DNA of 64,000 bases from a virus (Duplodnaviria; Heunggongvirae; Uroviricota; Caudoviricetes): positions 64,001 through 128,000 of IMG/VR virus record IMGVR_UViG_3300013105_000002; one strand, 5' to 3'. Each line of letters starts with the position of its first letter. Position 1 is the first letter of the stretch. Made by a program: the position numbers and the translations under genes. The notes below the pieces were generated by a model. It saw only the letters and a program-made list of their open reading frames with translations, did no database searches and was not told the origin of the DNA. Positions 910-64,000 of the stretch are shown piece by piece.

Positions 910-3900
910 TTGAAGACGGTAACAACGGCGACAAGCAATGAACTGAAGCAGTCATATGACGTAAACACTACAGCCCGCTTGATCGCAGAATGGAACATGA
1001 ACAGGTACTCGCCAATCTCTGTTGTACGCAATACTGCGGCAGCATTGGAGGATGGCGATGCTGACCTGTACCCAATTTCATCCATCGTTCTACCGCACCG
1101 CCCAACATCTTCTGGAATTGTGAAGGCCCGTGCCAACAGCGCTGCTCGCGCTGGATACAGCCCTGACGGATACACGTCTAGCGGCTATAAGAAGACGCCC
1201 GGTGCTGCTCGCTACGTCACTGCAAGCCCAGACTCAAAGTACAAGTATTGGTCATCACCAAATGAGTCTGCTGGCGGTAGCGTGGGTCCGACCTTCTCAA
1301 ACATGACAAACACGCAGCCTACCGTGATCTACTCAAACAACACGTGGACGAACAAGATTTTCGTACGCATCGAGAACTCATATTCATTCCCTACGGCATG
1401 GACCGTGGAGACGACGACGGACGGTACCAACTGGACCACCGTTTCCACCAACCCTACGATTGCCTCAAATGGCGCGGTGTCACTGTGGCGTCAGGCCAAC
1501 GGCTCTTGGGGAACAACGCCATACTACGACAACCCTACACAGTTGCGCGGTGTGCGTATCACTGTTACCCAGATGAACCGTTCAAAGGTGTATTTCAACC
1601 TTATCGAGTTGGGCCTACGCCTAGAGTCTGACCTGTCTGCATACATGATTGACTGGGAAGTCAACAACAGCATGTCAGAATACTCCTTCATCACACCGCT
1701 GGGAACGGCATCTGCAAATGATGGCTCTGTCACGCTAGCCAACTTCGACAACAGATTCTCCAATGACAACCCGTCATCGATGTACTTTGGCCTCATCGAC
1801 AAGAACGTAACCATGCGTCTTGATCTTGGAATCACCACCGATGCCTACACGGCCACTACCAAGAACTACGAATGGATTCGTATGTTCACCATGCGCACCG
1901 AAGACTGGAATGGCAAGGACTTGGACGTGGTGAGTGTTCCACTGAAGGACGATTCTGTCGTGCTTCAGGCAATCAAGCCAAACCCAACGCTTCTAGAGTC
2001 AAAGACTGTTGCTGAAATCATCTGGACCCTGCTGGATGGAATCGGCATGACCAACTACTTCGTTCAGGTCATCGACGCTGACGCCACCACCCTGATTCCG
2101 TACTTCTGGACTGACGGTACGGAGACGATGTGGGATATCATTCAGAAGTTGTCTCAGGCCACGCAGACGGCTGTGTATTTTGACGAGTACAACGTCTTGC
2201 AGATCAAGACGCGTAGCACCGCCTATGATTTGACAGCCACCCCTGTGTGGCAGTTCGACGGTGTTGTCAACGGCACCAAGTTGCCGGATATCGTTGATCT
2301 GGACAAGACCAACAACTTCGAAGCAAATGTGGTAAACGTGGCCTACAAGGACACCAAGCCAGCCGATGAGGTTTCTGGTATTGCTCCCATGCAGTCAATG
2401 TGGGAGCCTGAGGGTGACGTTGTGCTGCGTGCAGCACCGCTAGTTCACTCAATCACCACCACCTCACCGTCACTTCGCATTGACCCTTCTGCTGCAAAGA
2501 CATGGCCTTACGCTGGACTGATTCAGGTCGAGGGCGAGTTCATCCGTTACACGGCCAAGGGCTACTCATACTACCTTGCAAATGGTACGCTGACCTCAAA
2601 GTACATTGCCAGCAATGACGAGAAGATTGCGCTGGACAAGTTGAACCCAAATCTCTCTTACCAGAACGCATTCAATGGCTACCTGTGGACACCAGTGCGC
2701 GGTGAGTTCAGCAGTGCACCAAAGGCTCACACCATCGATGCTGCTGGATACACCACCAGACTGAAGACTGGAAACGGAACCATGAATCCATGGACCGGAG
2801 GATGGAAGGCTGTCAGTGGAAAGTCCATTGCCAGAATCACCACCAACTCAACATTCAAGGCTTCTACGTGGTATACCGTAACACACGGTTCTGAGTTTGA
2901 CTCACCTCCGTACTACTACGGTACCCGAATTCGATTCCCGAACGAGGGATACAACGGTGGTCTGGGTGGTCTCGTGATCAGCGCGGGTGGCACTGGCGAT
3001 GCAGGCTACTACATCGAACTATGCCGTACGTCTTTGTTCTCAAAGTACCCTACGTGGAGAAGTTCTGTAAACGAACTGTCATTCTACGTTCGCTATGCTG
3101 ACGGAACCATGAAGCGCCTTGGCGCAAACGGAAACAAGGGAACGATTGCAAATATCGCGCCGGGTGTGTGGTATGACCTTGACGTCACTGTTTCCTACAA
3201 TGCCTCCATCCCTACATTCAACATCTTCCTTAACGGTGTTCTTCAGATGAACGTCACCGTTCCATCAGCCATGCGTCCACCAACTGGAAACACTGGTCGC
3301 TGGGGTGTGTTCACGCGTGGATACACAAATGCAGAGTTTGAGTACGTCTACGCATCATCGTCAAATGAGGCAGTGAACTTCGATGGCACTGCTCGCTACA
3401 ACCGTATTGATGGTGGATACCAGTCTGATCAGGTAACCTCTGAATGGATTTACAACACTCGTAACGTCATCAGAATGTACCGTAACAAGAAGACCAGCGT
3501 CATTCAGCGTTACAACCAGTTCTTCTTCGATGACTTCGGTGCCACTGTGCATGAGGTCAGAGAGTTCAACGTAAAGTACAATGTGGCTACCGATACCGGG
3601 CCTGCGCTGTATTCCAAGATTTACTTCAGCAATGACTCTCAGGTCGTGTGCCCTGAGTTCATCCCGAACCCATTTGGTGCCAAGTTCATTCTTGCAAACG
3701 CAAGCCGTATCAATGCCGTGGTAAACGGAAACGATGCTGTGACCTATGGTCCAGAGAATGCTGTTGACCAGAAGTTGATGGTTTACGGACGAGCAATCAA
3801 GGTTGGTGAAGAGAAGATCAAGACGACCCGCAACGAGAATGCAATTCTACGACGCGGTGAGGTGGCTGTGGACTTCCCTTCAGACTTCATCCAGTCAGAG

Positions 3901-29785: not shown

Positions 29786-30309
29786 TGCCGGGTAGTGTAA
29801 GAGAGAATGACGAGTTCGTTCGCAACTGGGTTGTGGATAATGATGTAAGAACGGTTCTCGACATGGGGGCCGGTAGGGGTACATATAGCACCTTGCTCCG
29901 TGACCTTATTCAAACCATCGATGGTGTAGAGGCATGGACTCCTTACATCGATCAGTTCGATCTAGAGAGTAAGTATGATTTCATTTACAACGAAGACATT
30001 CGTGGGTTCGAACCAGAGATTGATGACTATGACCTTGTGATCTTCGGGGACGTTCTAGAGCACATGAGTGAGTTCGACTCAAAGGCTGTGTGGAATGCCG
30101 CCAAGGACTACGCAAAGACTGGTCTAATTTCGGTACCCATCATTCACTATCCACAGGGTGCAGAGTTCAACAACCCATTTGAGGTGCACGTTCAGGAGCA
30201 CCTGACCCCAGCAGATATCAGAAGTATATACGGCCCGTTTGACGACGAGGAAGTTTACCAGATTACTGGAACATTTATTAGGAGATTCGATGCCAGTACA
30301 AAGATTTAG
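29785..30309 (+). CDS. Class I SAM-dependent methyltransferase
   Basis: VLDMGAGRG, GVE and GDVLEHM motifs. Confidence 0.85.
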   Translation: MPGSVRENDEFVRNWVVDNDVRTVLDMGAGRGTYSTLLRDLIQTIDGVEAWTPYIDQFDLESKYDFIYNEDIRGFEPEIDDYDLVIFGDVLEHMSEFDSKAVWNAAKDYAKTGLISVPIIHYPQGAEFNNPFEVHVQEHLTPADIRSIYGPFDDEEVYQITGTFIRRFDASTKI

Positions 30310-40713: not shown

Positions 40714-40988
40714 TTGTTGGAAGGGAACGCATGGTGCGGCGGCGAGAGAAACCTCGGCGCAGACAAACAAAGTGAGTTCGACTCTCACGCCAGTCCAACG
40801 GTTCGAACCCCAAAGTCGCGGGGTGTAGGGCCAAACGCCTGCTGAGAAGCATACGTAATAAATGCGCTGGCGTTCAGTGGAGTAGGTGGAGGTTGAAACT
40901 AGTTAAAGCCATAGAAGCCTTTGATCCCACTGAATGACCAAACTTGATATACTGGTAACAAAGTGGTCCCGGTAATAAACCGCCACTT
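40714..40988 (+). ncRNA. Unidentified structured RNA with a T-arm-containing 5' domain
   Basis: No + strand ORF. GTTGGA/TCCAAC closure, GTGAG-TTCGACT-CTCAC T arm, ACGCCAG/CTGGCGT and TTCAGTGG/CCACTGAA pairings. Confidence 0.55.
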
Positions 40989-42684: not shown

Positions 42685-42767
42685 GGAAGGTCGGCAATTG
42701 GCGTAGCACACAGTCTTGAAAACTGCTAAGGGTAAAACCGATGTGGGTTCGACTCCCTCACCTTCCG
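42685..42767 (+). tRNA. tRNA-Ser(TGA)
   Basis: GGAAGGT/ACCTTCC, G73, loop CT TGA AA, long variable arm; weak D arm. Confidence 0.85.
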
Positions 42768-42773
42768 CCCAAA

Positions 42774-42811
42774 AAGGGCTGGTGGATGCTTTCGGGCGCA
42801 CCAGCCCTTTT
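42774..42811 (+). terminator. Rho-independent terminator
   Basis: AAGGGCTGGTG...CACCAGCCCTT followed by TT. Confidence 0.7.
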
Positions 42812-42832
42812 CTATACCCAAAGGAGGATGAC

Positions 42833-43318
42833 ATGGAACTACTATTCAGCACACCGCATGGATCACGTCTGTATGGCCTGCACCATGCGAACTCTGACCA
42901 TGACCGCATGGAGGTTTATGGTTTCAACAAGTTCAGGCCAAAGCAAAAAATCATCGGTGATGATGATGTTGTCAAGGCATCACTAGACAAATTCCTGCTG
43001 TACTGTGACAAGGGTGTGCCCCAGTATCTTGAAGCCATGTTCTCCGAGCAGGCCACTGTGAACCGCATAGAATTCATCACGGACACCTACATGCCCAACA
43101 TGACACACATGAGAGACACGTATTTTAGAACCATCAAGTCGTTCTGGATGTTCGGTGTTGAGAACGATGACCACAAGAGGCGGCGGCATGCACTGAGGCT
43201 CTTGCTCAACTTGCGCGAAGCCCATGAACGTGGTAGATTCAACCCAACATTGACAGCCGAGCAGGCTAGACAGGTCACCATCGATGCTGATAGACTGACG
43301 GAGTTGCCCGACTTTTAG
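42833..43318 (+). CDS. Pol-beta superfamily nucleotidyltransferase (RlaP-like)
   Basis: HGSRLYGL....SDHD minimal NTase motif (GS...DxD); AAGGAGG RBS. Confidence 0.8.
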   Translation: MELLFSTPHGSRLYGLHHANSDHDRMEVYGFNKFRPKQKIIGDDDVVKASLDKFLLYCDKGVPQYLEAMFSEQATVNRIEFITDTYMPNMTHMRDTYFRTIKSFWMFGVENDDHKRRRHALRLLLNLREAHERGRFNPTLTAEQARQVTIDADRLTELPDF

Positions 43319-49148: not shown

Positions 49149-49703
49149 ATGGACCGAGAGGTTCCTTGGGAGGAAATTACCATGGAGAACGTAAAGATCG
49201 ACTGGCGCAATGGGCGTATCACGGGCGGTGTCCGTATGGCATCCACCAGTGGCTGGATCGACATTCCGCTTCTGTCTCACGTTGAGGGAAATCTCTATCA
49301 GGGTGGATGCAAGCAGGGCTACGCTCTGGATGACGATTTCGTCAAGGTCGTCTCTCTGTACCCGTGGGAGCGTTACGAGATTGCTGACGGCACTGACCGT
49401 GTTGAAATCCGCATGTACGACAGCCACGACGGTGTGCTAGAGGAAGACCTTTTCCGAGCGTCCGATGAGGTTCTGGCCGGTCTGGAAAAGGGCAAGACCC
49501 TTGTCCACTGTCAGGCTGGACTCAACCGCTCTGGACTTGTTACGGCATTTACCCTGATGCGTCAGGGTATGTCCGCGCAGGACGCCATCGACAAGTTGCG
49601 TCGTGGGCGCGACCAGTTGGTTCTGTGCAACCAGACTTTTGTCAAGCAACTGCACGACTTGGAGCGCCGTCGCTCTGAATGGGAGGGTGATACTCATGAG
49701 TAG
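49149..49703 (+). CDS. Dual-specificity / tyrosine phosphatase family protein
   Basis: LVHCQAGLNRS (CX5R) motif, MYDS acid loop, N..F..QL. Confidence 0.9.
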   Translation: MDREVPWEEITMENVKIDWRNGRITGGVRMASTSGWIDIPLLSHVEGNLYQGGCKQGYALDDDFVKVVSLYPWERYEIADGTDRVEIRMYDSHDGVLEEDLFRASDEVLAGLEKGKTLVHCQAGLNRSGLVTAFTLMRQGMSAQDAIDKLRRGRDQLVLCNQTFVKQLHDLERRRSEWEGDTHE

Positions 49704-55489: not shown

Positions 55490-55740
55490 TGGAGGTAGGG
55501 TTCAAAGTAGGTGACAGGGTTAAGGTGGTTCGAAACTGCAACCGCTATATGCCTCTACCGCCCGGTACTTTGGGTAAAGAAGGCAGGATCGTAGGCTCCT
55601 TGACACCCATGTCATGCCGTGTTAAGATCGCCTATGGTGAGGAAGTCTGGGTCGAGTTCAGAGAGATTGAACTTGTAAAGGCTTCTACAGAAAAGCCGGT
55701 AGCGAAAAGCGCACCGACTAAGAGGAAGAGGAAATCATGA
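55486..55740 (+). CDS. KOW/SH3-like small protein
   Basis: FKVGDRVKV...G.EG.IV motif. Confidence 0.55.
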   Translation: MMEVGFKVGDRVKVVRNCNRYMPLPPGTLGKEGRIVGSLTPMSCRVKIAYGEEVWVEFREIELVKASTEKPVAKSAPTKRKRKS

Positions 55741-56891
55741 CAAGCCTAGACGAGATTCTAGACACAGAACTGCTTGCAAGGCATATCGAAGACGGAAACG
55801 TCTCTGCCCGCACACATGAGAAGTTTCCTTGGGAAATCTTCAACTACACGCCAAAGGCTCAGTTCGCTCGTGCATGGGACGACGTAACCCTCGCATGTCG
55901 TGGACTTGTCTGGAACTACGAGACAAACACCGTTCTGGCTCGCCCCTTCCCCAAGTTCTTCAATTGGGACGAGGGTGTGATTCAGTACCCTCCCATCGGT
56001 CATACCCTGCGCATGGAGAAGATGGACGGATCGCTGGGTATTCTCGTAACCGATGACTACTGCAACGGCACTCCAACTAAGGAATGGATTTCCACTCGTG
56101 GGTCATTCCATTCAGAGCAGGCCGAGTGGGCAACCAAGTTCTACCTAGAGACAGTGGCAGAGTCTGCAAACAACCTGCCTCCCGAAATGGTGTTTTCGCC
56201 ACTACAGGGTAAGACCTACCTGTTCGAAATCATCTACCCGGAGAACAGAATTGTCGTTGACTACGGTGACTACAAGGGCCTAGTGCTGCTTGACGTTATC
56301 GACAACGAGACCGGCAATTCTGATGTTCAGGAGTTCGACAAGGCTGAGTGGCCTGACAAGGTTAAGCGAATCCTCGCCAACTTTGACTCAGGTGACACCG
56401 CTGCAATTCCCGATGGTGACGAGGGATTCGTGTACCTTTGGACGAGTCGTAAGGATAGGGACGGAAACGACCTTCCTGACTTCCGTACGAAGATGAAGTC
56501 TCCGGACTACATCGCGTTGCACCGATTGGTGACTGGACTTTCTGAAAAGACTGTCTGGGAGCACATGGTGAAGGGCGGTGCGCTTCAAGACCTGAAGCGT
56601 GAATTGCCTGAAGAGTTCCACGAGTTCATCGACAATGCTGGAAAGAAGTTCTTGAAGGAGGCTTCTCAGATTGTTTCGACGGTGTACTCTGCCATCGACA
56701 CTCTGGAAAGCACAGTTCTTCACGAGCGTCTGGACATGGTTGACAGAAAGACCGCAGCCGTGGCCATACAAAAGCATTTCCCTGCTCTGGCAAAGTACAT
56801 GTTCCTCGTACTTGACGGCAGGCCGATCCATCCTGTAGCGTTGCTCTCAGTCAAGCCTCGTAAGGAGGCACCGCTAGTAACGGAGGTGTAA
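55737..56891 (+). CDS. T4 Rnl1-like RNA ligase
   Basis: CRGL, RPFPKFFN, EKMDGSLG, STRGSF, FEII.PENRIVV, EGFV and KMKSPDY..LH motifs. Confidence 0.92.
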   Translation: MTSLDEILDTELLARHIEDGNVSARTHEKFPWEIFNYTPKAQFARAWDDVTLACRGLVWNYETNTVLARPFPKFFNWDEGVIQYPPIGHTLRMEKMDGSLGILVTDDYCNGTPTKEWISTRGSFHSEQAEWATKFYLETVAESANNLPPEMVFSPLQGKTYLFEIIYPENRIVVDYGDYKGLVLLDVIDNETGNSDVQEFDKAEWPDKVKRILANFDSGDTAAIPDGDEGFVYLWTSRKDRDGNDLPDFRTKMKSPDYIALHRLVTGLSEKTVWEHMVKGGALQDLKRELPEEFHEFIDNAGKKFLKEASQIVSTVYSAIDTLESTVLHERLDMVDRKTAAVAIQKHFPALAKYMFLVLDGRPIHPVALLSVKPRKEAPLVTEV

Positions 56892-57614: not shown

Positions 57615-58502
57615 ATGACCGTTTTCATCACCGTTGGTGCGCCTGCCAGTGGCAAGTCCACGTGGGCTATCGAGTACGCCAATGAGTTCGGAAACACGAT
57701 GATCACGTGCCGTGACGACATTCGCGCTACCTATGGCATCACCAAGTTCGGTGACAAGGAAACTGAGCAGTTCCTGACAGACGTTCAGCGTGCCCAGATG
57801 GAGGGTGCATTTGCTGCCGGAATGGACGTTATCGTTGCAGACACCAACATCAACAGGCGTTTCCGTAATCAGTTGGTCAAGTTCGCTCATGAGCACGCTC
57901 AGGACGTTGAACTGGTCACCTTCTACGAGCCTCTTGACGTTCTCATCATGAGGGATGCGGCGCGTGAGCGTACGGTCGGTGCTGATGTTATCACGAAGTT
58001 CTACAACGACCTCAACAGTCAGGAAATCATTGATATCCTGCTGCCGCACCCTCGTGCTCTGAAGTACAAGCACAACGAGGCAAGCCCCGAGGCAATTGTC
58101 GTTGACATTGACGGCACTGTTGCTGACCACAAGGGGGTTCGCTCTCCATACGACGAGTCGAAGGTCGGCCTTGACAACCCGAAGTACGATGTTATCAGCG
58201 TTGTCAAGGCTCTTGCCGAGCGTTTCGCCGTCATCTTTGTTTCGGGTCGCAAGGACTCGTGCGAGGCTGAGACGCGTGCGTGGATCGAGAAGCACTTCGA
58301 TTTCACGAATGGTGACTACTTCCTGCACATGAGGAAGCACGGTGACGATCGTCCTGATTACCGAATCAAGGCTGATCTGTATGACCAGAAGGTTATCCCC
58401 AACTGGAACATCAGAATGGTCTTTGACGACCGCGATCAGGTTGTTCGTCACGTTCGCAAGCGCGGTATCACCGTTGCTCAGGTTGCACCGGGCCACTTCT
58501 GA
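57615..58502 (+). CDS. Polynucleotide 5'-kinase / 3'-phosphatase (T4 Pnkp/PseT-like)
   Basis: GAPASGKST, RDDIR, VADTN, DIDGT, SGR and FDDRDQVV motifs. Confidence 0.93.
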   Translation: MTVFITVGAPASGKSTWAIEYANEFGNTMITCRDDIRATYGITKFGDKETEQFLTDVQRAQMEGAFAAGMDVIVADTNINRRFRNQLVKFAHEHAQDVELVTFYEPLDVLIMRDAARERTVGADVITKFYNDLNSQEIIDILLPHPRALKYKHNEASPEAIVVDIDGTVADHKGVRSPYDESKVGLDNPKYDVISVVKALAERFAVIFVSGRKDSCEAETRAWIEKHFDFTNGDYFLHMRKHGDDRPDYRIKADLYDQKVIPNWNIRMVFDDRDQVVRHVRKRGITVAQVAPGHF

Positions 58503-59603: not shown

Positions 59604-59936
59604 ATGTCTGTAGAAAATGAAGAACATCCTAGAGAACTTAGACTGGTAATCAAGGTTCGTAAGGATGCGAAGATGAGTCCGAAGAAGTTGGCTGCACAGG
59701 CTGTACATGCCGCTCTCCAACTGGTAGAGTCTCACCATGGCGGGCCGGTGATCGTCCTAGATGGCACCAAGCGTCAGATCGAAGAGTGTACAGTTGTGAT
59801 CATTGACGAGGGTAGAACCGAAGTCAAGCCAAATACGGTTACTGCTGGCGCTTATTGGGATGAGCGTGATGTTCCTCCTGAGAAGATCGAGCAGTGGAAG
59901 GCCGAAGAGGCACTTGACCGCAGCAAAACCTTCTGA
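59604..59936 (+). CDS. Peptidyl-tRNA hydrolase, Pth2 type
   Basis: LVI.VR.D.KMS.KKLAAQAVHAA and IIDEGRTEV.PNTVT motifs. Confidence 0.8.
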   Translation: MSVENEEHPRELRLVIKVRKDAKMSPKKLAAQAVHAALQLVESHHGGPVIVLDGTKRQIEECTVVIIDEGRTEVKPNTVTAGAYWDERDVPPEKIEQWKAEEALDRSKTF

Positions 59937-59978
59937 TAGAGTTCCACTCGTCAGCAAGAAACGAACGTCGCAGTCACC

Positions 59979-60007
59979 TTGACAGCCAGTTCCAATCTTG
60001 GTAGACT
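59979..60007 (+). promoter_or_regulatory. Sigma70-type promoter of the large ncRNA
   Basis: TTGACA-N17-TAGACT with TG extension. Confidence 0.8.
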
Positions 60008-60013
60008 AGAATA

Positions 60014-60707
60014 CAGAGGACGGAATAGCAACCGTCGCAAATAAATGCAATCGCTCAGACTTGCGGGTCTGGCCGGTGGGGTAGTGTAGGGTGTGGTCCG
60101 TGCCTTGCATTCAGGAAACTACCTCGCAATCGCAAAAGTCAACGGACACTAAAACTTCATAGATATAAGGATAGCCACATTATCTCCTTTACCAAGGTGG
60201 TCGGAAGGTCAGGTAGTAGAAAGATTGACTGACTTAACGGAGGTCCGTAAATCCTCCAACAAACTTCATAGATTTGTCTGACGTAGGAAAACACGTTGTA
60301 TGTCTACGGAGGTAGGAAGCCGAAAGAGCACTCGATAAGGTAAGTCTCGACAGTGGCAATCTCTCCTAATGATTAGGCGCGAACCGCTTGGACGGGCGTC
60401 CTGCCAGACAATAAATTTGGTGCTTGGGCTTGATGGGTGCTTGCCCAATCACCAATTAGTTTGGCTTAACCAGCCGAAGGTTGCTTCTACCTAAAGAAGC
60501 CGTGGACCACCATACGAAAATTGAGGGTGGAGGTTGTTCTCGTGAGCCAAAATCACAGAGGGAGTGATCCCGCCTGAGGGTCGTGGGTAAGCAGCAGTTG
60601 GTTACTTATGCGAAATCCCACACTTGGGTCAGTGAATAGAACTAGTTTCAGTCTAAAGCCGACAATGGACGCTGAAACCTGTGGGTGCAAGTCCCACCTG
60701 ATCCACA
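60014..60707 (+). ncRNA. Large (~690 nt) multi-stem non-coding RNA, GOLLD/ROOL-class candidate
   Basis: Own promoter, no + strand ORF, more than 12 hairpins, a pseudoknot candidate, a 13-nt direct repeat, and a 3' domain ending in GTGGG-TGCAAGT-CCCAC. Confidence 0.7.
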
Positions 60708-61065: not shown

Positions 61066-61140
61066 CCGCGATTAGTTTGAACTTGGATAAAACGCCGGTG
61101 GCAAAGCCGGAATTGAGTGGTTCGAATCCCTCATCGCGGG
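61066..61140 (+). pseudogene. Degenerate tRNA-like gene (Cys GCA-like loop)
   Basis: CCGCGAT/ATCGCGG, GTTT/AAAC D stem, CCGGT-GGCAAA-GCCGG (6- or 8-nt loop), bulged T stem. Confidence 0.6.
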
Positions 61141-61146
61141 CAACAC

Positions 61147-61175
61147 TTGACACCCAGAACTTGGCGTGTTATTCT
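61147..61175 (+). promoter_or_regulatory. Sigma70-type promoter
   Basis: TTGACA-N17-TATTCT, then AAGGAG RBS. Confidence 0.75.
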
Positions 61176-61207
61176 TAGTAGACCAACAACCACCAAGGAG
61201 ATTGATC

Positions 61208-63304
61208 ATGTCCAACACTGCATTTATGTTCCGACGCACCCGCAAGGTTCTCGTCCCGATGCGCCGCGCGGCTGGAAAGAACGCTGCGCTCGTTGCGTCG
61301 TTCGATGCAAACCTGCGCCGTCTGGGATTTGCGCTGGACGCTGACGCCGTGAAGGCCCTTCTTGACGTGCCCGCATCTGACTTCGGCGGTATCGCCAATG
61401 ACGTGATTGCCGAGGCAAAGCGTATCAAGGGTGTCAAGCGTTATTCCCCTATGTATCCCAACTTCCCCAAGCAGGTTATGGAGGCGTCTGACGCTGAACT
61501 GTACCTGAACGCCATCATGCACTACTACGGTGACATGGTTGGTCTTCGCATCCTGCCTGTCTACGAGAAGGCAGAGCGTCCCGAACTGGACTTCGATGAG
61601 TCTCGATTCAAGAAGGTCGGTGTGGCGTACCAGCAGGACTTCTTTGCCACGATCATGTCTGTGGTAAACCAGAAGGCTGGCTACGGTGAGCAGGAGCGAG
61701 AGGATATCTCTGAGTTCTGGGAGCACCTGATGCAGCAGCCTCAGGGCGAGTTCAATTTCGGCAACCGTGAGAACAAGGCGTGGTTTGCTGCAAAGGCTTA
61801 CCGTTACCTGAAGTTCTTTCCAATGGGCGAGGTATTCAAGTTCGACACAGCCACCGACGTTCTGCGTTTCGCTGTTGCCCTGTGTGATGGCGATGTGTCC
61901 CTTGCTGAGAAGACTCGGTTCAAGTCCTTCGCTCGTTCTGAGCGTCGTCTCATCCTTGGTCTTTTCAACCAGATCAATGGTCTGGATGAGGATTTTGCTC
62001 GTCGTCCTGAGACGTTCAAGCGTCTTGGCGAGCGTCTGCACCCTCGTGAGTACAGCGCTCAGTTCCCCATTGCCGCATCTGCCTTTGCAACGGTTCGTGA
62101 CAACAAGCGCAAGCCTGTCACGTTCAACAGCGCTGTCGAGAATGCTCTTTCAAGTGGTGCCACGTCTGCTGCTGTTTCTCTACTGAAGACTCGCCCCGGT
62201 GAGTTTGCGCGTCGTCTCGATGAGGTACTACGCTCTGCCAACAACATTACGCAGGCCCGTGCATTTGTCAAGGCGTTCGATGCTGTCGCTGCTCAGGTGT
62301 CCGCACCTGTGCTTCTTCAGGCTCGTGCTGCCCTTCAGGCTGACCGTGGTGGAAACCGAATCTTCTTCCCGAAGGGCAACGTTTCCAAGTTCAAGGCGAT
62401 CCCTGACACTCGTGGTGACATTGACCTTTCTGTCCGCAATGCGGCGGTGGAGGCGTGCAACAAGGGTCTCGTGGCTCGCTTCAGCGAGAAGGGTTCTCTG
62501 GGCAAGGTGTATGTTGACTCCGCTCTGGACGGCGTAACCGTTCCGCTGACGATTCGTGATGCCTCAAAGGGTCGCGTTCTTGGTCGTGGTTCTCGTATGC
62601 CGTTCAACGAAAAGACCAATGTTCTTCGATTCTTCATCTGGTGGAAGGACATTGACATTGGTGGCCGGAACGGTCGTGTAGACATTGACCTTTCTGCTGT
62701 GCTGCTGGATGACAACTTCAACACGGTGGAGGCTGTGGCCTACTACAACCTCCGTGGTCTGGGTGCTACGCACTCTGGTGATATTACGTCTGCTCCGCAC
62801 GGAGCAAGCGAGTTCATCGACATTGATCCTGCAAAGGTTCTAGAGCGCGGTGCGCGTTATGTCGCCATGACCGTTCACTCCTTCAGCCGTCAGAATCTTT
62901 CGGATATTCCTGAGGTGTTTGCTGGTTACATGGAGCGAAACGACCACGATTCGGGAGAGGTCTACGATCCTCGTACGGTCGAAAACCGTGTTGACCTGAC
63001 GACTCCTACGACCAACTCCGTTCCTTATATCTTCGATATGAAGACGGGTGAGGCCATCTGGATCGACATGGCGCTGCGCCTCGGTGGCTATGGCTACGGT
63101 GGTAACAACGCTGCCAGCACGTCGCTGACCACAGAAAACCTTGTGAGTGCGGTCGTTCGCAAGAACTACCCATCGCTCGGTGATCTATTTAGACTGCACG
63201 CAAAGGCTCGCGGTACGCTGGTTGACAGCCCCGCCGAGGCTGATGTAGTCTTCAACCTAGACAACGCATTCCGCACTGAAGAGGTGCTTGACAAGTACCT
63301 CTGA
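61208..63304 (+). CDS. TROVE/Ro-like alpha-helical repeat + TerD-domain protein
   Basis: 698 aa. YSPMYPNFP.QV, TATDVLR.A, LL..RPGEFARRLD helical region; C-terminal RFFIWW..RVDIDLS...HSGDITSAP.GASEFIDID TerD fold. Matches the described RING-TROVE-like-TerD architecture without the RING. Confidence 0.8.
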   Translation: MSNTAFMFRRTRKVLVPMRRAAGKNAALVASFDANLRRLGFALDADAVKALLDVPASDFGGIANDVIAEAKRIKGVKRYSPMYPNFPKQVMEASDAELYLNAIMHYYGDMVGLRILPVYEKAERPELDFDESRFKKVGVAYQQDFFATIMSVVNQKAGYGEQEREDISEFWEHLMQQPQGEFNFGNRENKAWFAAKAYRYLKFFPMGEVFKFDTATDVLRFAVALCDGDVSLAEKTRFKSFARSERRLILGLFNQINGLDEDFARRPETFKRLGERLHPREYSAQFPIAASAFATVRDNKRKPVTFNSAVENALSSGATSAAVSLLKTRPGEFARRLDEVLRSANNITQARAFVKAFDAVAAQVSAPVLLQARAALQADRGGNRIFFPKGNVSKFKAIPDTRGDIDLSVRNAAVEACNKGLVARFSEKGSLGKVYVDSALDGVTVPLTIRDASKGRVLGRGSRMPFNEKTNVLRFFIWWKDIDIGGRNGRVDIDLSAVLLDDNFNTVEAVAYYNLRGLGATHSGDITSAPHGASEFIDIDPAKVLERGARYVAMTVHSFSRQNLSDIPEVFAGYMERNDHDSGEVYDPRTVENRVDLTTPTTNSVPYIFDMKTGEAIWIDMALRLGGYGYGGNNAASTSLTTENLVSAVVRKNYPSLGDLFRLHAKARGTLVDSPAEADVVFNLDNAFRTEEVLDKYL

Positions 63305-63317
63305 GCGGGTGTAGAAT
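63288..63317 (+). promoter_or_regulatory. Sigma70-type promoter inside the 3' end of the TerD gene
   Basis: TTGACA-N18-TAGAAT; predicted start falls at the first Y-like repeat. Confidence 0.75.
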
Positions 63318-63321
63318 AAAC

Positions 63322-63396
63322 TTGCAGGCTACGGGCAGTGCTTCCTTCTAAACACTTCAATTGGATGAAATCACTAGCGCTCTCACTCTCCTGCAA
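63322..63396 (+). ncRNA. Y-RNA-like repeat 1
   Basis: TTGCAGG/CCTGCAA stem, CTAC/ACTCT internal loop, AGTGCT/AGCGCT stem, loop TCCTTCTAA...AAATC. Confidence 0.65.
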
Positions 63397-63404
63397 AAAC
63401 AAAC

Positions 63405-63472
63405 GGTGGCTAAGGAATGGGCTTCCTTCTAATTGCTTACATCAATCAAATCTAGCCTTTCTACTCTCCACC
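63405..63472 (+). ncRNA. Y-RNA-like repeat 2
   Basis: GGTGG/CCACC stem, CTAA/ACTCT internal loop, GGGCT/AGCCT stem, same TCCTTCTAA...AAATC loop. Confidence 0.65.
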
Positions 63473-63514
63473 ACAAACTCAACATCTGGCAAGGTGCAAA
63501 GATACACTTACCCG

Positions 63515-63588
63515 GCCCGTAAGGGAGATAAGTTCTGGGTCGCAGTCCCAGCGCCAGAAGTGAGTGGTTCGAATCCACCATCACGGGC
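63515..63588 (+). ncRNA. tRNA-like element without D arm
   Basis: GCCCGT/ACGGGC, CTGGG-TCGCAGT-CCCAG, GTGG-TTCGAAT-CCAC. Confidence 0.5.
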
Positions 63589-63607: not shown

Positions 63608-63730
63608 ATGGAAGAGTTACCTCCGTTAGACGAGGACTGGCAAGAAGAAATAACATTAGAACAGTCTATTGAGGACAAGGCAATTATGGATGGAATCCTT
63701 CGTCCAAATTGGAGAGACTATACGTCTTGA
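63608..63730 (+). CDS. Small acidic hypothetical protein (absent from ORF track)
   Basis: 40 aa, AAGGAG RBS. Confidence 0.45.
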   Translation: MEELPPLDEDWQEEITLEQSIEDKAIMDGILRPNWRDYTS

Positions 63731-63765: not shown

Positions 63766-64000
63766 GGGGCCGACAGGTTTCGACAGACATAACTAAACAT
63801 GGTTCTCAGTCATGATTGGACAGATCATTAAAAGGTCCAAAACAACAAATGCAATGGACAACATTGTTTCCGCATCGATGGAAAACATCGATGCCGAGTA
63901 CGAGGCGCTTGTCGCTGAGTTCTCGCTTGTCACTGTCTGAAAGATAAACAAGGATGGGGCACGATACCGCCTTATTAACCAAGAGTATCAAAACACAGTT
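63766..64000 (+). ncRNA. ssrA: tmRNA (3' end beyond the window)
   Basis: 5' GGGGCCGACAGGTTTCGAC signature; tag frame from AAAT-GCA at 63851 to TGA at 63940. Confidence 0.9.

Follow-up and report, generated by a model that had tools for sequence, protein, structure and literature searches.

The 64,000-nucleotide stretch of DNA analysed here (the window) covers positions 64,001 to 128,000 of the IMG/VR virus record IMGVR_UViG_3300013105_000002. The genome of this virus is complete and measures 131,350 bp, with direct terminal repeats; the window corresponds to its second half and has a GC content of 51%. Near the end of the window, between positions 61147 and 63588, a gene coding for a protein of 698 amino acids is followed by two short structured RNAs. 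The gene and the two RNAs probably constitute one module, in which an RNA-binding protein is accompanied by dedicated partner RNAs in a manner analogous to Ro60 and its Y RNAs. Protein and RNA are neighbours in hundreds of genomes of phages and bacteria, and the pair therefore looks like an undescribed counterpart of the Ro60/Y RNA system. A dedicated pair built on the Ro60/Y RNA plan was already the core of an earlier reading of this DNA (the original prediction), and this core is sustained by the genetic linkage of protein and RNA, the strand of the RNAs, the covariation of their stems, their exclusive association with the gene, and the existence of YrlA-type mimics in other members of the RNA family.

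Handle RNAs beside the gene

Both RNAs are located on the + strand downstream of the gene. Their promoter (63288-63317, + strand) lies within the last codons of the open reading frame (ORF), as originally proposed, and consists of TTGACA (at 63288), 18 nucleotides (nt), and TAGAAT, matching 11 of the 12 consensus positions. Its predicted start at about 63323 falls on the first paired bases of RNA 1. This RNA (63321-63397) is composed, in this order, of the first strand of a stem (P1), GGCUAC, the first strand of a second stem (P2), the stretch CUUCCUUCUAA, a small apical hairpin, UAG, P2', ACUCUCC, and P1'. RNA 2 (63402-63475) follows the same plan with different stem sequences. The constant part of this plan is called the handle. 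RNAs 1 and 2 match R1, the covariance model of the handle, with 47.6 and 44.9 bits (E-values of 4e-9 and 1.9e-8, which are rough, as all R1 E-values are), and the z-scores of their folds are -3.1 and -2.8, respectively. Exactly two R1 matches are present in the window, and exactly two in the whole 131-kb phage genome.

The two repeats share GGCUA, GCUUCCUUCUAA and ACUCUCC, their folds are alike, and their stems differ; the identity of the two copies is 80% over 25 nt. Comparison with the closely related locus L167, which codes for a protein 82% identical to that of the window, indicates what is maintained. The RNA promoter is identical in L167 and both handles are kept there; the P2 stem of handle 2 carries two compensatory double changes with respect to the window, and the apical hairpin of handle 1 keeps its pairing by means of changed bases. 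Like folds, R1 matches and these compensatory changes establish that the two repeats announced by the original prediction are real and structurally conserved. Relatives at about 50% identity possess weaker handles at the same downstream position.

The plan of the whole family is P1, GGCUAU, P2 (8 bp), an invariant (C)UUCCUUCUAA, a variable apex, UAG, P2', (G/A)NUUUCC, and P1'. Rfam 15 yielded no family for the handle when the window and 13 further loci were searched. Eighty loci were taken from large viral contigs; their proteins are only 33-47% identical. In 47 of these loci the exact 11-mer CTTCCTTCTAA adjoins the gene, up to about 1.3 kb upstream or downstream of it, in every case on the strand of the gene, the opposite strand having none. 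R1 gives 317 matches in these viral loci, distributed over at least 78 of the 80, and all of the 300 matches listed are on the strand of the gene. With respect to bacteria, 114 matches were obtained in 74 of 80 loci, 113 of them on the strand of the gene, and most of the six loci devoid of a handle end at a contig edge. The carriers include Paenibacillus and Bacillus-group isolates, cyanobacteria, Armatimonadota, Acidobacteriota, Planctomycetota, Bacteroidota, and Saccharimonadia. The RNA motif expected at homologous loci is thus present in viruses and bacteria alike. In five whole bacterial genomes (4.6-7.9 Mb), every R1 match among the top 150 candidates scored per genome adjoins the gene.

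The stems of the handle are well conserved as structures. In 39 instances, which had been pre-filtered on pairing, 90.7% of the alignment cells are paired versus 53.9% after shuffling, double-sided changes amount to 220 versus 74, and the pairing score is 0.91 versus 0.28 at most when the partners are slid. The corresponding values for 116 distinct sequences found with the model are 93.4% versus 55.3% and 683 versus 212, in an alignment that leans towards the structure because it was fitted to the model. In both alignments the slid-partner controls stay at or below 0.28, the true score being 0.91-0.94. These controls, together with the number of pair types, render both helices secure.

The apex is the variable part of the RNA. 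About one in seven R1 matches is 110-148 nt long, and in these long copies the apex consists of a T arm, an acceptor-like stem closed by a hairpin, and a D arm. Such modules match the Rfam YrlA family at 24-43 bits (E-values down to 2e-6), under its gathering score of 69 bits. The mini-hairpin UUGAC-N4-5-AAUCAAA, carried by the window at 63430-63455, recurs in the handle apexes of distant loci (L002, L003, L005, L011, L018, L019, and L022) and is, judged from these sequences, a second conserved type of apex besides the tRNA mimic. Among cultured phages, XacN1 carries a pair of handles 5' of ORF396, where the annotation leaves a gap, and the handles of Weasels2 and WXIN are weak or marginal; the family proteins of XacN1, Weasels2, and WXIN are annotated as hypothetical.

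Phage loci can contain tandem arrays of up to nine diverged copies, situated upstream or downstream of the gene. Tandem RNA copies that adjoin one protein gene and lack any further conserved partner, the pair being distributed patchily among bacteria and phages through horizontal spread, recall type III toxin-antitoxin pairs, in which the RNA repeats would neutralise a harmful protein. However, ToxIN-like systems have near-identical repeats and an endoribonuclease toxin, while the copies described here are diverged (80% over 25 nt in the window), stand on either side of the gene, and share loop motifs instead of stems. Moreover, neither Foldseek nor VIA-align found a nuclease fold in the protein, and PADLOC gave no match. 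A toxin-antitoxin nature of the pair is therefore very improbable.

A helical protein with a TerD domain

The gene of the window is preceded by a sigma70-type promoter (61147-61175, + strand) formed by TTGACA (61147-61152), a 17-nt spacer that contains TG, and TATTCT, with 10 of 12 consensus positions; it is kept in L167. A Shine-Dalgarno sequence, AAGGAG (61195-61200, + strand), can be read 7 nt 5' of the ATG. The ORF itself extends from the ATG at 61208 to 63304 (+ strand). A consensus scan, direct reading, and translation thus locate all three elements, promoter, ribosome-binding site, and 698-codon ORF, where they had been placed before. The protein is divided into a Ro60-like helical part (residues 1 to about 455 and about 640 to 698) and a TerD-like β-sandwich (about 458-650).

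Sequence comparisons indicate a large family. At least 3259 homologues were found by a word-index search, and an exhaustive search gave 2896 cluster representatives at E<=0.001. The protein matches PHROG 33734, to which PHROG assigns no function. No Pfam match was obtained at E<=1, and searching the PDB with the sequence or with its profile gave no match. Some family members (P0136, P0140, P0152, and P0167) carry N-terminal extras of 150-400 residues that are ankyrin repeats. These repeats are a module for protein-protein interaction and may point to a third partner.

TerD proteins are β-sandwiches that bind calcium or other ligands. In the AlphaFold model of the 698-residue protein (pLDDT, the model's own confidence measure, of 84.5), residues 1 to about 450 are helical and residues from about 458 to 650 form a β-sandwich. 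Foldseek matched the latter to the PDB entries 3ibz, 2kxt, and 2qz7 (E-values from 5e-6 to 2e-4, probability 1.0) and, in AFDB, to TerZ (E-value 1.6e-8, TM-score by hit 0.74). VIA-align, run against 48,161 PDB chains, gave Z scores of 14.6 (156 of 169 residues aligned) and 12.6 for TerD structures. The DxDxS and SGD motifs of the domain are invariant across the family. The Pfam TerD model (PF02342) matches four of 36 relatives and not the protein of the window. The C-terminal TerD fold, which the original prediction had proposed, is therefore clear in the predicted structure. Whereas the TerD, TerE, and TerZ proteins of this fold (PF02342; PDB 2kxt, 3ibz, and 2qz7) are stand-alone proteins of about 190 residues encoded in ter operons, the phage domain is embedded in a much longer, RNA-linked protein, and no ter genes are found nearby.

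The closest named relatives belong to the NCBIfam equivalog NF041916 (MXAN_6230/SCO0854 RING domain, RING_SCO0854), whose members bear Prok-RING_4. The phage protein is homologous to them over most of its length; it scores 394.5 bits (E-value 9.8e-118) and covers only profile positions from about 170 to 760. It remains under the cut-off of the family (600 bits) because the RING is missing, and no RING or zinc-finger match was found with Pfam. Its neighbours in AFDB and in the ESM Atlas are named TerD family or RING finger protein. The link to a RING-bearing bacterial family that had been suspected is thereby confirmed, and on sequence grounds the phage protein is a relative of NF041916 from a sister branch of RING-less proteins of about 700 residues. 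True RING-bearing NF041916 genes (1138 bits) show a weak handle match just upstream, on their own strand. No published or experimental description of NF041916 or of the RING-less branch was found in the literature.

The linkage between gene and RNA could also exist without any binding. The RNAs would then act on their own, for instance as decoys related to tRNA or as processing signals, and ride with a TerD-type stress protein on a mobile cassette. tRNA genes do surround the phage loci, 48 out of the 80 viral ones having one within 3 kb, and TerD proteins are not, to our knowledge, RNA binders. However, the linkage persists in bacterial loci, of which only three out of 80 have a tRNA gene at that distance, and it spans many phyla with strict strand agreement and no other conserved neighbour. 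In addition, the helical part of the protein resembles an RNA-binding ring and exhibits many Arg and Lys residues that are invariant across the family. For these reasons, a mere co-transfer of protein and RNA is quite improbable, and we infer that the protein binds its neighbouring RNAs.

Comparison with Ro60 and possible role of the module

The resemblance of the protein to Ro60 is one of fold. In the VIA-align search with the full model, the Ro60 structures of phage phiLo, D. radiodurans (Rsr), and Xenopus (Ro) occupy ranks 3-5, right behind TerD. The Z scores are 9.3 for 1yvp_A (root-mean-square deviation 4.5, 331 residues aligned), 8.2 for 9l5y_B (306 residues), and 7.9 for 2nvo_A (311 residues). 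These are the only matches that exceed 300 residues, the other non-TerD ones being HEAT fragments of about 100 residues. When the N-terminal model was used alone, the three Ro60 structures came at the top with Z scores of 7.6, 6.5, and 6.2. Foldseek does not reproduce this result, since the N-terminal model had no PDB match at E<=0.001 and Ro60 was also absent from the listing for the full model. The comparison of an AlphaFold model with the Ro60 ring, proposed as a check by the original prediction, thus shows a likeness of moderate strength with VIA-align and none with Foldseek.

The Ro60 alignments continue beyond the TerD domain until residue 698 of the protein, and on the Ro60 side they cover the chains to their ends, which suggests that TerD is inserted in the ring-closing domain. 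Pfam finds no vWA domain in the protein. The model contains α/β elements on both sides of the TerD domain and, together with the extent of the alignments, these flanks are compatible with a vWA-like remnant that bears a TerD insert. The earlier statement that TerD replaces vWA looks imprecise: TerD is present, and it looks inserted into the ring-closing domain instead of standing in its place. The structural prediction is that the 698-residue protein forms a Ro60-like helical ring with TerD near its closing part.

Ro60/Y RNA systems of bacteria comprise Rsr with YrlA/YrlB and Yrn1 (PMC4201824; Rfam RF02553), and the module of the YrlA Y RNA is a permuted tRNA mimic (PMC4201824). In phage phiLo, Ro60 and the RNAs Yrl1/Yrl2 attenuate the host PNPase (PMC12135203; PDB 9l5y). 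The pair described here shares several features with these systems. The gene of a large protein, predicted to be a helical ring in the present case, adjoins one or several small structured RNAs of the same strand; these RNAs combine a terminal stem and a conserved internal loop with a variable module, which is of the YrlA type in some genomes; the pair is present in bacteria and in large phages; and the protein fold resembles three Ro60 structures. However, the phage protein carries TerD, no vWA is detectable in its sequence, and it has no detectable sequence relation with TROVE, while the sequence of its handle differs from that of Y RNAs. The likeness between handle and Y RNA is one of design and does not prove common descent. 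No canonical TROVE gene was found in this phage genome. Such genes were found in three of five carrier bacterial genomes (G002, G003, and G005; loci L163-L165), elsewhere than the TerD-type gene and without a handle beside them; the two systems therefore coexist and neither of them replaces the other.

Several observations weigh against a counterpart of Ro60 and its Y RNAs. Z scores of 8-9 are attainable between unrelated helical repeat proteins. The Pfam TROVE model (PF05731) has no match at E<=1 in the protein of the window, nor in 36 relatives, and hhalign of the family profiles against a TROVE alignment (shallow, with 15 sequences mostly from Paenibacillaceae) gave probabilities of only 0.3-0.7%. 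Because of these negative results, the protein is called Ro60-like and is not filed as a TROVE member; of the TROVE-like nature claimed originally, a moderate similarity of fold is what stands. The RNAs of the window carry no tRNA-like module and match neither Y_RNA (RF00019) nor YrlA (RF02553) of Rfam, even at E-values up to 1 to 10. The RNA-repair genes, to which importance had been attached, are not conserved in the vicinity: at a distance of up to 3 kb from the gene, Pnkp is found in two of the 80 viral loci, and an RNA ligase in none of them and in one of the 80 bacterial loci. Therefore, the link with RNA repair is local to this phage.

A further objection arises from the position of the RNA in bacteria. 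Many bacterial loci possess a single handle, which ends 1-10 nt 5' of the start codon. For instance, in the Paenibacillus loci L147, L113, L148, and L127 it ends 5-9 nt before this codon, and the Shine-Dalgarno sequence (GGAG or GGA, around positions 2985-3000) is located inside the 3' strand of P1. Such an arrangement suggests feedback control and, indirectly, binding of the handle by the protein. A cis-regulatory role is real in several bacterial loci and could be the primary one. The RNA might then be nothing but a cis-acting regulator (a translational operator, a leader, or an element of the 3' untranslated region) and would not work as a free RNA or particle; the protein might bind it in a feedback loop. 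In keeping with this explanation, bacterial loci have only one or two copies of the handle. However, the RNA is found 3' of the stop codon in about four of ten bacterial loci as well as in the window, phage arrays reach nine diverged copies, and some copies include complete tRNA-mimic modules, which a leader does not need. A purely cis role fits this phage badly, since its RNAs are downstream of the gene and have a strong promoter of their own. As a general explanation, regulation in cis alone is unlikely. Copies on either side of the gene, tandem diverged arrays, and the separate promoter of the window argue for an RNA that acts in trans and is not a leader only.

In the preferred interpretation, a protein working with dedicated RNAs, the protein would be a Ro60-type helical ring carrying the TerD β-sandwich. 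It would bind the constant handle, that is, the two stems around the internal loop (GGCUAU/NNUUUCC) followed by the single-stranded CUUCCUUCUAA and UAG. The variable apex would be the working end and would engage another factor; it appears as short hairpins in this phage and as a YrlA-type tRNA mimic elsewhere. The RNAs of the window, which are provided with a separate promoter within the final codons of the gene, should act in trans in this phage. By analogy with Rsr-Y RNA-PNPase and with the Ro60-Yrl of phiLo, the particle would most likely recruit, block, or decoy an RNA-processing enzyme. It would act during infection, within the tRNA, tmRNA (transfer-messenger RNA), and RNA-repair island of the phage. 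As the original prediction supposed, it might conceivably tether partners and protect RNA at that time.

A more specific version, which we consider doubtful, is that of a display platform: the constant, protein-bound handle would present exchangeable RNA heads as decoys or adaptors for enzymes that cleave or process RNA. The heads would be the tRNA mimics and the mini-hairpins, and bacteria and large phages would employ them against each other in conflicts about tRNA and rRNA. With regard to the handle itself, the invariant pyrimidine-rich CUUCCUUCUAA (63341-63351 and 63422-63432) can form pairs with Shine-Dalgarno sequences of the GGAGG type, one of these pairs being G-U. The invariant loop coincides at eight of 11 positions with the 3' tail of the 16S rRNA (CCUCCUUUCUA in Paenibacillus and Chitinimonas; L179 and L181). 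Speculatively, and from sequence resemblance, the pyrimidine stretch UUCCUUCUAA might itself be functional; the particle would then act on the initiation of translation or on enzymes that attack the 16S tail.

No publication describing this protein-RNA pair was found in the literature. In a survey of jumbo phages (PMC7824862), general remarks deal with canonical TROVE proteins and with stand-alone TerD only.

Apart from Ro60 and the Y RNAs, we know of no system in which a ring protein and adjacent modular small RNAs steer RNases. If the interpretation preferred here is right, the pair would be a second one, with a different handle and a TerD-bearing protein, and the design would be general instead of belonging to a single family. 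It would also provide a new, easily recognised class of structured RNAs in bacteria and phages, absent from Rfam, a first functional lead for the thousands of members of NF041916 and its RING-less branch, and a new entry to the management of RNA by phages with large tRNA, tmRNA, and RNA-repair islands. Cultured carriers are available, such as Xanthomonas phage XacN1, Rhodococcus phage Weasels2, and isolates of Paenibacillus, Niallia, and Heyndrickxia.

Surroundings of the locus

The module is located in an island rich in RNA-related genes. The window contains an array of 18 tRNA genes, as determined with ARAGORN. Upstream of the 698-codon gene are found an Rnl1-type RNA ligase (55737-56891), Pnkp (57615-58502), PTH2 (59604-59936), a tRNA-Arg (60829), and an HNH endonuclease. 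A RlaP nucleotidyltransferase, of the RNA-repair-associated type, is situated farther away in the tRNA island (42716-43318). Downstream, the tmRNA gene begins at 63766, runs past the end of the window at 64000, and has its own TTGACA/GATAAT promoter. The neighbours listed in the original prediction, namely tmRNA, Pth2, tRNAs, Pnkp, and a nucleotidyltransferase, are thus present, and so is one RNA ligase; a second ligase was not found among the neighbours in the window. A dual-specificity phosphatase (49149-49703) is also encoded in the tRNA island and, together with RlaP, enlarges its RNA-repair set (Rnl1, Pnkp, PTH2, and tmRNA).

Across the loci compared, no conserved protein-coding neighbour was detected, since clustering of the flanking ORFs yields only antisense shadow ORFs of the gene itself. 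Because there is no such neighbour, no PADLOC match, and no consistent adjacency of tRNA, Pnkp, or ligase genes, the conserved unit is the protein with its RNA or RNAs. A megablast search of the locus against GenBank phages found nothing.

Two tRNA-shaped elements flank the module on the + strand. The downstream one (63515-63588) is degenerate, with a 6-bp acceptor-like stem and a perfect T loop, GGTTCGAATCC, at 63566-63576. Its upstream twin (61066-61141) has an aberrant anticodon loop and ends just 5' of the gene promoter. The twins are 86% identical over their 3' 36 nt, and each of them is directly followed by a TTGACA box; they may be a duplicated cassette formed by a tRNA 3' half plus a promoter. 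Neither was called a tRNA by ARAGORN with default settings or by Rfam, and they were discarded as tRNA genes; with relaxed settings, ARAGORN reports only the upstream twin, which it describes as a tRNA with a 2-nt anticodon and no assignable identity.

In L167 the upstream twin keeps a 7-bp acceptor stem thanks to two compensatory changes and has lost the T-loop consensus. The downstream twin is absent from that locus, as is a 40-codon ORF that is preceded by a promoter box and lies in the window between the T-loop element and the tmRNA (63608-63730). The tmRNA of L167 stands directly after handle 2, so the T-loop element and the small ORF represent an insertion or deletion difference outside the module. 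The T-loop element that the original prediction had included in the system does exist, therefore, but neither twin was retained as a conserved part of it.

CTTGACA boxes are frequent in the window (27 versus 13.6 expected). Six of them are on the + strand between 59978 and 63732, each preceding an RNA gene or an ORF, and the promoter of the 698-codon gene belongs to this cluster. One is followed by about 700 nt (59978-60707), up to the tRNA-Arg, with no ORF longer than 41 codons on the + strand; the sole Rfam match of this region, to RAGATH-21, is at chance level. The region is possibly a long non-coding RNA. Further T-loop motifs (GGTTCGAATCC, with one mismatch at most) occur outside the ARAGORN tRNA calls at 40800, 41485, 41783, and 44043 on the + strand and at 30004 on the - strand, and may belong to additional aberrant or permuted tRNA-like elements within the tRNA array.

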